From Tubulanus polymorphus (Eukaryota > Animalia > Nemertea): a stretch of DNA of 64,000 bases. The stretch is taken from assembly GCF_964204645.1 (NCBI RefSeq), contig NC_134027.1, positions 2,078,485 to 2,142,484 on the forward strand, in the 5' to 3' direction. Of the stretch, positions 55,898-59,304 are shown one piece after another. Both the position numbers and the translations under genes were made by a program. The notes under the pieces were generated by a model that did not search any database, had not been told where the DNA came from, and saw nothing but the letters and a program-made list of their open reading frames with translations. How positions within the stretch are numbered: position 1 is the first letter of the stretch; each line of letters opens with the position of its first letter.

Positions 55898-58800
55898 ATG
55901 AGTCGGATTTATCTATTGCTGATTTGTGTCATTATTTTTACGAATGGTAAGTTTGTATTTGATATCAAAACTGAAACAGTGATTGATTAGCAGCTGAATT
56001 TCAAATTTCTACATTAATATGATAATATGAATATTGTTTAATAAGGGCGCGTTCCCACATAATCTGACTAGAGGGCCTCATAGGAGGTTCAATAGATTGT
56101 ATTACTTATACATTACAGTAATACATAACTATATAATGGCTATAATAAAAACCTACGAATAGTTGAACAAGCTTATAGGCGCCGATTGAAGGATAACGTT
56201 TCCCTTTACGACATAGTTCATTAACCTAACTAATGTCTCTCATCGCAAATAGTGTGCGTAACCCTTGGTAAAAATTTGAGGTATTTCAGCCACTGGTGAA
56301 GTCAATAATTTGTTAATGGTATTTACATTATTTAATCGGTAGAGAGATAGAGAGATATCACAATGTTAACTGATATTCTTAACTGTCATTTCTGTAATCT
56401 TGGTTCGGTATCAATGACAATATTTCGTAATAATTCTTTTTAGGAATCGTTCACGGACAAGATGACGTTGGTAAGATTTGACTGAAACGTTTCAATGAAA
56501 TATTTCATCAATCTGTGTCCATGTCAAACGTGGATATATCTTATTTCTAGCTCCAGCGACAGGGGGTGATGGTTTGGATACCAGCACTATCGATGGTTCC
56601 GATGTGACCGGGTCAGACGTCGAAGGACCAGAGACCAGTACTATACACGGCTCAGATACCGATACTGTAGGAGAAACCACAGTCGAAGGCGAGACACCTC
56701 CGTCTCCCGAACCTTCAGCATCCGACGCTGCTGATGGTGCGACAGATGCAGGCGATGATGCCACTGACGCACCGGGCGATGGTGGCGATGGTGCCACAGA
56801 TGCAGCAGGTGAAAGTACAACAGATGCAGCAGGTGACAGTGCCACAAATGCGGGTGCTGATGCTGTGACTGGATCTCCTGATGTAGAATCAACGACTGGT
56901 GAATCGAAATCAGAAACATCGGAACCATCAACCGATGAACCCGATACAGGTATCGAGCTTAATCACTCGTTCTCTAATGATTCCTGTTTATTTCACTTTG
57001 AGCAAATATTCCAATCGCATCAATTATAGTTTCAGATGGAACGGCTGCAGCAGGTGATGACGTTACCGTAACTACTGCAGCTACAGAATCTGTGGCACCA
57101 ACTGCAGGTACACTTTACCTCAAAACCTTCGTGAATTATCCACGGTCAATTATAGTCGATGCAATTAATAGCATAACTCGCAACGTATCTCCAACACAAA
57201 CTTGAACATCTATCAAAGACGTTTCCCGTTTATTACGATGATTTCCAGCATGTCCCAGCTAATAATCCCGATTTGGAAAATACGAAACCAGTTTATTACG
57301 ACAATCAAGATTCGCAATAACGCGGTTCCACTGTACATGTCATGATAATCATAAACTATGAAGTTTCTAATCATTTCCATTTTACAAACAATAATCTCGA
57401 TTTGCATTCTCGATATTTTTCAGGTACTACAGATTCTACTGTCTCGGTAAGTATTCACAACTCCATTAATAGATGATACAAATGTGTGTTCTAGTGATAA
57501 TGATATATATATATATATGACGTTACCGTATATATATATATATATATATATATATATATATATATATATATATATATATATATATATATATATATATATA
57601 TATATATATATATATATATATATATATATATATATATATATATATATATATATATATATATATATATATATATATATATATATATATATATATATATATA
57701 CATATATATATATATATATATATATATATATTGCTTTATTCGTAGCCAGTAGATGTGAAATTCGTGCCCGATGAAGAAATGACACAACAGCAAAGAGATA
57801 ACTCTTTGACTTTAGAGTTAGATCTTACAAATGCTAACATCGACTGGGTAAGAACATCTAAGATCCTAGAAATGGACATTGACATCGTTTTTTGAGTATA
57901 TTTTACAAAAACATGTTAATTCTACGGTAACTGCAGGATAACCCCGAAGAAGTAGCTGCCTTTTATACTTGGTTACAAGAAGTGATAGCTAGTCTACTGG
58001 ACCAGGCCGAACAACGGAGACGTAAGCGAGAAATTCACCGCACAATAAAGAAGATATACAAACCTGATGACGTGAAATTTGCTGGGAAACATCAAATTAA
58101 AAACGGAAAACTTATATTATCAGTTTTCGTTAAGAAACCTGGTTCAACAGGTACGTGTTCATATCAAATAGATATTCTCCATATCGCTTGTGTATCTAGC
58201 TGTTGGTCGTTATGGTAAACTGAATATTATTTTCAGTGGCAAAACCACCTGCAATTCCGAAAGAGAAGTTGGAGGCTATAAAGGATAAATTGGCGGAAAA
58301 AATGTCTCAGGTATGAAAAATTATCGCGAATACAAATGAGAATTTGAATATTGTATTGGAATTCAAGCGAATTACAGAACGTAGTAATTCTATCTATTTG
58401 AAATTGAATAATCTGTCACCCAAATAGAACATTACAACACATATGTAGTTCCATATACTCCAAAACTGTTTTTTTTTTATATAACTGCTATGAGCTCGAT
58501 TCGCTGATGTGAATACGTATCTTTCAGAAAAATATCAAAGTTACTAAAATATACACAGGAGTACCGGCGCCAGTAACCGGTGCAGTTTCTCACGCAGGCG
58601 GCGATGCTTCTGATGACGATGAAAACGTGTTCGATGCTCATCTCGGTCTTTTCCTCGTACTTATCATCGTTTCGATCGTCTGTCTTATCAGTATTATCAT
58701 CGGAGTAATACTAATCAAATGTCGTGGACGATCCGGCTCTTACCAAACTAAGGTAATAAATGCATAAGTGTATTACCACCGTGTATGACTTCATCAATCA

Positions 58801-59304
58801 CTTAGAAATAATCAAAGTACATTATATAGATCGTTGAATAAGAAGAATATATTCCAGAAATAAATAAGTATATATCTAGTAACAAAATGGTTTTGATTCT
58901 TTCAGAGCTGTATTGCCTGAAGTGTCTCCACTCTCTCCTCTAACTCTCTCTCTCTCTACTCTTCTCTGGGATATATTCATCGTAAAGCTTACAAACTATC
59001 AACTATCGGGGCAATGCTTGGTCTTCATAAAGCTTAGCTATCTAATCATATTTTTAAGAACGCCAAGAATGCAGAAGAGGGTGGCGGCAAAAAACAGCGC
59101 AAGAAACCGAGGATGCGAGAAGTGGAAAGTCCGATTACGGACGAGGAAATAATGAAAGACGAGGCGCCGATGATGGAGAAAGGTAACCCGGCATTGAACG
59201 GGGATTACATGAGCAGTAAAGGCGAGGAAGGTTGGGTCGTACCTATAGATGAATTAAATAACGAAGAAAAATTAAAACCCGAGGTGGAAGATACTAAATT
59301 ATAG
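55898..59304 (+). CDS. Type I mucin-like membrane protein with a podocalyxin/CD34-like cytoplasmic tail
   Basis: Exons ~55898-55946, 56444-56470, 56551-56949, 57037-57107, 57424-57446, 57746-57847, 57937-58150, 58237-58310, 58528-58752, 59059-59304 join in frame. Signal peptide [21 protein letters not shown], acidic Thr/Ser/Ala-rich stalk, globular region with [32 protein letters not shown], and a tail ending WVVPIDEL...EDTKL. Confidence 0.85.
57503..57731. repeat. (TA)n microsatellite, ~200 bp main run, intronic
   Basis: Run 57529-57731 with one CA interruption, plus a short run at 57503-57518. Confidence 0.98.

Follow-up and report, generated by a model that had tools for sequence, protein, structure and literature searches.

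Podocalyxin is described as essential for the foot processes of podocytes and as a marker of mesothelium and endothelium (PMC2193439). It recruits NHERF through its C-terminal DTHL and ezrin through a juxtamembrane stretch, and its ectodomain drives the formation of microvilli, as presented in PMC1796660 and PMC12922080. A disulfide-bonded domain and an eight-exon layout are given as defining features of the CD34 family (PMC2193439, PMC7359396), and PMC2132552 describes tail-less splice forms of CD34 and of chicken podocalyxin. In the literature found, the CD34/podocalyxin family is treated in vertebrates only, and no report of an invertebrate podocalyxin was found in a search of mainly open-access papers. 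A preprint proposing a single origin of excretory organs (10.1101/2020.11.15.378034) relies on nephrin, kirrel, and ZO1 as markers, and the words "podocalyxin" and "CD34" are absent from its main text.

The locus compared here with these proteins lies in a stretch of 64 kb of DNA from the palaeonemertean Tubulanus polymorphus (the window), for which an initial annotation had proposed a podocalyxin/CD34-like sialomucin, either a deep homologue or a case of convergence. Exon 7 matches LOC141902044, "uncharacterized" in RefSeq, at 100%. The gene runs on the forward strand from a start ATG at 55898 to a stop at 59304, with ten GT-AG exons and a frame that is open throughout. The coding part of exon 1 (55898–55946; contigs and RefSeq) encodes the signal peptide and ends in a phase-1 donor, while the RefSeq start lies 11 codons earlier, at 55865. 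Exon 2 (56444–56470, 27 nt; contig joints) covers the end of the signal peptide and the start of the stalk. The main acidic Thr/Ser/Ala/Gly mucin-like stalk, recognized from its composition and from contigs, is encoded by exon 3 (56551–56949) and is continued by exon 4 (57030–57107), whose acceptor at 57030 was set by a spliced contig and agrees with the RefSeq protein, and by exon 5 (57424–57446, 23 nt; contig joint and loose end), which ends the stalk with a phase-0 donor. According to contigs and the structure model, the predicted SEA-like domain begins with its first strand in exon 6 (57746–57847), followed by helix 1, a basic loop, and strands 2-3 in exon 7 (57937–58150) and helix 2 in exon 8 (58237–58310). 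Exon 9 (58528–58752; contigs) encodes strand 4, a linker, the transmembrane (TM) helix (about 58654–58716), and 12 basic juxtamembrane residues before a phase-0 donor. The coding part of exon 10 (59059–59304) provides the cytoplasmic tail, and the 3′ UTR extends over 59305–59827, with the transcript contig ending at 59819 and an AATAAA at 59822–59827.

Joints for introns 1-4 and 6-9 are present in spliced contigs from one sample, which is possibly also a source of the RefSeq models, and intron 5 is backed by a loose contig end that matches exons 4-5. The contig run was taken to be transcript because its joints are GT-AG. These contigs join the last exon to the TM exon (58752 to 59059); thus, the objection that the tail exon might not belong to the same transcript does not apply. 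RefSeq lists two isoforms, X1 of 489 aa (XP_074645784.1), which has the tail, and X2 of 412 aa (XP_074645785.1), in which 58752 is joined to an alternative 3′ acceptor at 58906, so that four codons (SCIA) and a stop (58906–58920) replace the tail. Both joints are found in transcript contigs, at a depth of 88 for the long form and 35.6 for the short form, depths that do not rank the isoforms. Two introns contain repeats: intron 4 has a short high-copy dispersed repeat of very high contig depth (57225–57264), and intron 5 has a long (AT)n run (57503–57731).

The architecture originally proposed was borne out: a single TM follows a signal peptide, a stalk that is acidic and rich in Thr/Ser, and a globular region, the last of these as a structure prediction. 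The signal peptide and TM appear as hydrophobic peaks, and the protein has a type I layout with an N-terminal Ser/Thr-rich mucin-like stalk. This stalk of 171 aa contains 30% Ser+Thr and 24% Asp+Glu, whereas Lys+Arg account for 0.6% (one basic residue). A sequence scan detected neither an extracellular cysteine nor an N-glycosylation sequon in the protein, and the label "sialomucin" is unsupported. A furin-type site, RRKR, is located in the loop after helix 1 (58018–58029), where cleavage would be expected from the sequence; among 18 long family members, six carry R-x-[KR]-R in the 230 aa that precede the TM. The TM spans residues 376-396 and is followed by a tail of 93 aa that ends in EDTKL, as the initial annotation had correctly read it. 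The tail is charged, carries podocalyxin sequence motifs, and ends in DTKL, a predicted PDZ-docking site of the DTHL/DTEL type. A juxtamembrane RGRSGSY stretch (58717–58752), which is common to both isoforms and is not conserved across the family, presumably resembles the band 4.1 motif of glycophorin C. It also resembles an ezrin-binding stretch described for ICAM-3 (PMC1796660).

For the region before the TM, AlphaFold2 predicted a beta-alpha-beta-beta-alpha-beta arrangement, with a pLDDT of 69 for the sequence alone, a value that rose to about 90 when a 16-sequence alignment was supplied. The best structural matches to the first model were PCDH15 MAD12 (Z 7.4, rmsd 3.7, 113 aligned residues), GPR126, Nup54, CELSR1, dystroglycan, and CDH23; animal SEA-like domains made up 10 of the top 11 rows, at middling Z values (5.2-7.4). 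With the second model, the ACE2 neck plus TM was the best Foldseek match (E 1.7e-4), and a fold search with the single-sequence model gave no row at E 0.001 or better. Neighboring clusters in the ESM Atlas, which serve as leads only, included collectrin (0.92), MUC16 (0.87), CD34 (0.86), PCDH15, and KIAA1549. These results suggest that the membrane-proximal domain is a divergent SEA domain, as predicted from the models, and no match of the protein to Pfam SEA or Pfam Collectrin was obtained. Its nearest fold and language-model neighbors are collectrin/ACE2 and PCDH15, not CD34, and PDB sequence searches found no solved CD34-family chain for a fold comparison. Pei and Grishin reportedly placed CD34 among divergent SEA-domain proteins. 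The model of human PODXL in PMC12922080 has four strands and three helices in the corresponding region.

To identify relatives, residues 204-489 were searched with phmmer against 1.84 billion representatives at a cut-off of E 0.001 or better. The 41 matches comprised the short isoform, two protocadherins, and 38 relatives; the tail motif is present in 30 of these relatives, and the other eight are fragments of the TM exon. The protocadherins, which match through the TM, were dropped, and neither they nor the eight fragments, which lack tails, enter the tail counts. Of 20 relatives that were looked up, 12 carry species names. Eleven of these are from seven molluscs (Gigantopelta, Mytilus, Lottia, Haliotis, Bulinus, Sinanodonta, and Physella), the brachiopod Lingula, the annelid Owenia, the tardigrade Hypsibius, and the hemichordate Saccoglossus. 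The twelfth is filed under the transcriptome of the gregarine Ancora sagittata and is likely contamination from an animal host. None of the named relatives is labeled podocalyxin, two are labeled "SEA domain-containing", and no vertebrate CD34-family protein is present among these 12 or apparent among the other tail-motif matches from phmmer. A degenerate DNA pattern of the tail matched three metagenome loci, all of them family members, and two variants of this pattern gave no match in prokaryote genomes. The family is spread across invertebrate bilaterians.

A word-index protein search matched none of 61 candidates with the tail and returned only the gene's own isoform with exon 7 (1/34) and the C-terminal half (1/2378), blanks that are weak because shared 5-mers are required, and the tail alone had no usable match in the ESM Atlas. 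One PDB match each to the tail and to the tail profile was rejected as chance, and the Pfam matches obtained for four single exons were discarded as TM-type noise.

Alignment of 34 invertebrate tails revealed 22 columns conserved at 65% or more. A class I PDZ-binding end is present in 33 of these tails, DT.L in 22/34, and W[IV][IV]P[LIM][DE] likewise in 22/34; an upstream block, [DE]NP ... E[IV]M, is also part of the conserved motif. In LOC141902044, the five-block motif with its DTKL end occupies 59125–59301. On a profile built without Saccoglossus and Hypsibius, the Saccoglossus tail scored 24.7 bits (best of 2000 shuffles, 7.9) and the Hypsibius tail 38.2 bits (shuffle maximum, 9.0). Their ectodomains scored 12.8 bits versus a shuffle maximum of 9.5 for Saccoglossus and 8.4 versus 6.6 for Hypsibius. 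Tails had profile scores of 25-87 bits, compared to 8-46 bits for ectodomains; the tail, rather than the ectodomain, is therefore the most conserved part of the family, and this suggests that selection has acted on anchoring inside the cell, as in podocalyxin. Additional domains occur in many relatives, namely D8C (5/16), trefoil (2/16), and LDLa, and 12 of the 18 long relatives have no cysteine in the 170 aa that lead up to the TM.

Gene structure and splicing were also compared within the family. In two relatives, the loci L001 and L003, a phase-0 intron interrupts the coding sequence 10-12 residues downstream of the TM, just as it does in LOC141902044. Between the TM and last exons of these loci (L001, 1792–2139, forward strand; L003, 2991–3365, reverse strand) lies a conserved Arg/Ser/Pro-rich block, with a phase-0 acceptor and an end in ...AYV and a stop, that is 68% identical over 109 aligned residues and is one of only four blocks common to both loci; judging from these sequence features, it is likely an alternative last exon that would swap the tail. 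Three Lingula isoforms retain the W-V-V-P block, and the PDZ motif is absent from the ends of all three, which may reflect a true loss or an annotation artefact.

The tail of podocalyxin itself was compared using the dog sequence printed in PMC4862332 and the human peptide given in PMC9633294, with which the tail given in the initial annotation agrees. In the printed dog tail, DNP comes first and EDTHL last, with the inner blocks between them, in the order of the five blocks of the invertebrate family and over about 55 residues. A five-block matrix was derived from the 34 invertebrate tails only, with no vertebrate sequence, and the dog tail, the one full vertebrate tail in this comparison, was summed by hand. 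Its score was 66.1 bits (8.5 + 11.4 + 8.2 + 21.9 + 16.1), on blocks and spacer ranges chosen with the dog sequence already known, versus a maximum of 23.0 bits in 20,000 shuffled tails; leave-one-out members scored 24.4-100.8 bits (32/34 were long enough to score). The recurrence of ordered motifs claimed at the outset thus exceeds chance. Five positions in the middle of the longest block scored negatively for the dog tail, and the H of DTHL gained 1.3 bits through the presence of Saccoglossus in the matrix. With the PDZ end and first block left out, the three inner blocks still gave the dog tail 41.5 bits, compared to 20.2 for the best shuffle. The nemertean protein and dog podocalyxin share 8 identities in an ungapped run of 19 residues that extends from E[IV]M to LNG. 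The Saccoglossus tail, which ends in DTHL and has DNP, IVP.DN, and DTHL in common with podocalyxin, is intermediate. The tails differ in length, 76 aa in podocalyxin versus 93 aa in LOC141902044, and the distance between the W and the C-terminus is 20 residues in dog and 16-25 in the invertebrate family.

Membership in the CD34 family as defined is a separate matter. The Pfam CD34/podocalyxin profile, named at the outset as the first check, did not bear out the assignment: CD34_antigen (PF06365) gave no match for the LOC141902044 protein at E up to 10. Among the matches listed, three of 40 relatives were sub-threshold (E 0.0066, 0.0075, and 0.068; 13.6-16.9 bits, against a gathering score of 26.3), the best of them covering model positions 47-199 of 204 at 16.9 bits, and a second Pfam run listed the profile for 2/16 relatives. 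The protein is not placed inside the family because the Pfam cut-off was missed, disulfide cysteines are absent, and no vertebrate member was identified among the matches; it likely represents an invertebrate branch closest to podocalyxin that lies outside the CD34 family as defined. The tails of endoglycan and CD34 are not known to have the W[IV]VP[LI]D block, which would make PODXL the closest of the three to the invertebrate family. Vertebrate CD34-family genes are linked to plexin-A genes; neither plexin nor Sema was matched by Pfam among the 129 ORFs of the 64-kb window, a result that is uninformative at this distance.

The same shortfalls could be taken to mean that an independent family of SEA-domain membrane mucins acquired podocalyxin-like motifs through the same adaptors. 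The layout of mucin stalk, SEA domain, and TM is indeed common, as illustrated by collectrin, MUC16, KIAA1549, and PCDH15 in the ESM Atlas, and NHERF ligands that are unrelated to one another, CFTR among them, also carry short motifs of the DT.L kind; the missed Pfam cut-off, the absence of cysteines, and the lack of a named vertebrate match would all be expected as well. However, shared adaptors do not readily account for an arrangement of five blocks that keeps its order across about 55 residues and includes an ungapped run with identities, for a score that is still twice the null maximum once the PDZ end is removed, or for an intermediate hemichordate member and a tail-dropping splice in common, and convergence is accordingly considered unlikely. 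Of the two possibilities left by the initial annotation, deep homology is favored on the strength of the five ordered blocks, the same domain order, and the tail-less splice form, while the expected CD34_antigen match and disulfide cysteines did not materialize. Based on these sequence comparisons, LOC141902044 and its invertebrate family are very probably homologous to vertebrate podocalyxin, and, because the tail common to the invertebrate family closely matches that of podocalyxin, podocalyxin likely predates the vertebrates. The tail-less splice form, the upstream [DE]NP ... E[IV]M block, and the invertebrate family itself had escaped the initial annotation.

Homology of the tail leaves room for different functions. 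The preferred explanation, considered probable, is that LOC141902044 encodes a membrane protein with a mucin stalk, an SEA-like domain, and a PDZ-type tail, from an invertebrate bilaterian family probably homologous to podocalyxin, that would serve as an apical, negatively charged spacer with a NHERF-type link to actin. The consensus of NHERF PDZ ligands is D-S/T-x-L. By homology, DTKL of the long isoform would bind a NHERF-type PDZ adaptor and, through it, ERM proteins and actin; by analogy with podocalyxin, such anchoring is rated as quite probable. The stalk would be O-glycosylated, its charge coming largely from Asp/Glu rather than sialic acid, and, being extended, acidic, and held on the apical surface, it could keep apposed surfaces apart, with tube linings, coelomic or vessel walls, and filtration cells as the likely setting. 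An anti-adhesive role in lumens is considered evenly balanced between true and false. The tail-less isoform would retain the stalk and release the NHERF-type anchor, and furin cleavage at RRKR would allow the stalk to be shed.

A true homologue could also have another job, as part of a general epidermal or gut glycocalyx or as a shed mucin, and play no part in filtration or in opening lumens. The D8C, trefoil, and LDLa domains found in relatives would bind mucus or lectins and are typical of mucosal proteins, and the furin-type site in 6/18 long members suggests shedding; against this, Pfam detects none of these domains in the nemertean protein, and the stronger conservation of the tail points to intracellular anchoring, which makes the mucosal role a possible but less favored one. 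An escort function for apical transporters, exerted by the SEA-like domain and TM helix as in collectrin, would fit the best ESM Atlas clusters, all of them collectrin (0.92, 0.90, and 0.90), the best Foldseek rows, and one relative with a weak Collectrin match in Pfam (E 0.11, among the matches listed). However, only three of the ten best ESM Atlas entries that have a family agree, so the assignment is probably wrong; in addition, the LOC141902044 protein has no Collectrin match of its own, and the long mucin stalk and podocalyxin-type tail would be left unexplained. A collectrin-like escort is therefore regarded as very unlikely, and the anchored apical spacer is retained as the working explanation.

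The remainder of the window contains other genes. NOL9 lies upstream of LOC141902044 and EXOC2 (Sec5) downstream on the opposite strand, as assigned by Pfam, and the genes at 28400–52100 and 60600–64000 encode a PQ-loop transporter, a RING/Di19 zinc finger protein, an SAP domain protein, a Tim17 family member, and prefoldin, together with NOL9 and EXOC2/Sec5 (reverse strand). Two single-ORF low-complexity proteins on the forward strand (20903–22147 and 26059–26718), with Gly/Ser/Thr repeats and Ser/Glu runs, have very similar signal peptides (M.GFTF.LLFLA) and no Pfam match; from this resemblance, they are likely paralogous secreted proteins. A pentanucleotide tandem array with several open frames occupies 22790–23376.

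An invertebrate branch of podocalyxin would provide a new structural marker for testing whether filtration cells have a single origin with coelomic linings and vessel lumens. The vessels of nemerteans are lined by cells, which makes these animals a good test case. Besides the known DTHL, the tail residues kept since before the vertebrates would include W[IV]VP[LI]D, M.E, and NG, and their retention points to conserved podocalyxin partners beyond those in the literature found. It is tentatively proposed that podocalyxin dates back to the first nephrozoans. The common ancestor of protostomes and deuterostomes would already have had a single SEA-mucin, with this tail and a splice switch for dropping it, that lined its filtration cells and the lumens of its coelom or vessels, together with nephrin, kirrel, and ZO-1; the vertebrate CD34 trio would have descended from this mucin, later adding disulfides and sialic acid.

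The collectrin/ACE2 neck (PF16959), PCDH15 MAD12, GPR126, dystroglycan, IA-2, and MUC16 would have the ferredoxin-like membrane-proximal fold in common with the nemertean protein, according to the models; for collectrin/ACE2 and the divergent SEA proteins, the likeness is in fold only, at 5-17% identity, and their cadherin, peptidase, and GPCR parts are absent here. The CD34 family has a cysteine-bearing globular domain and eight exons (PMC2193439), whereas LOC141902044 has ten exons and a predicted globular domain without Cys. Podocalyxin differs in the same ectodomain cysteines, in its N-glycan sequons, and with respect to the furin-type site. The plan that it shares with the nemertean protein consists of a signal peptide, a stalk of mucin type, a compact domain close to the membrane, one TM, and an acidic tail ending in DT.L. 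The same architecture is described for endoglycan (PODXL2) and CD34, with PDZ-docking ends DTHL or DTEL (PMC2193439, PMC7359396), and a tail-less splice form is common to LOC141902044, chicken podocalyxin, and CD34.
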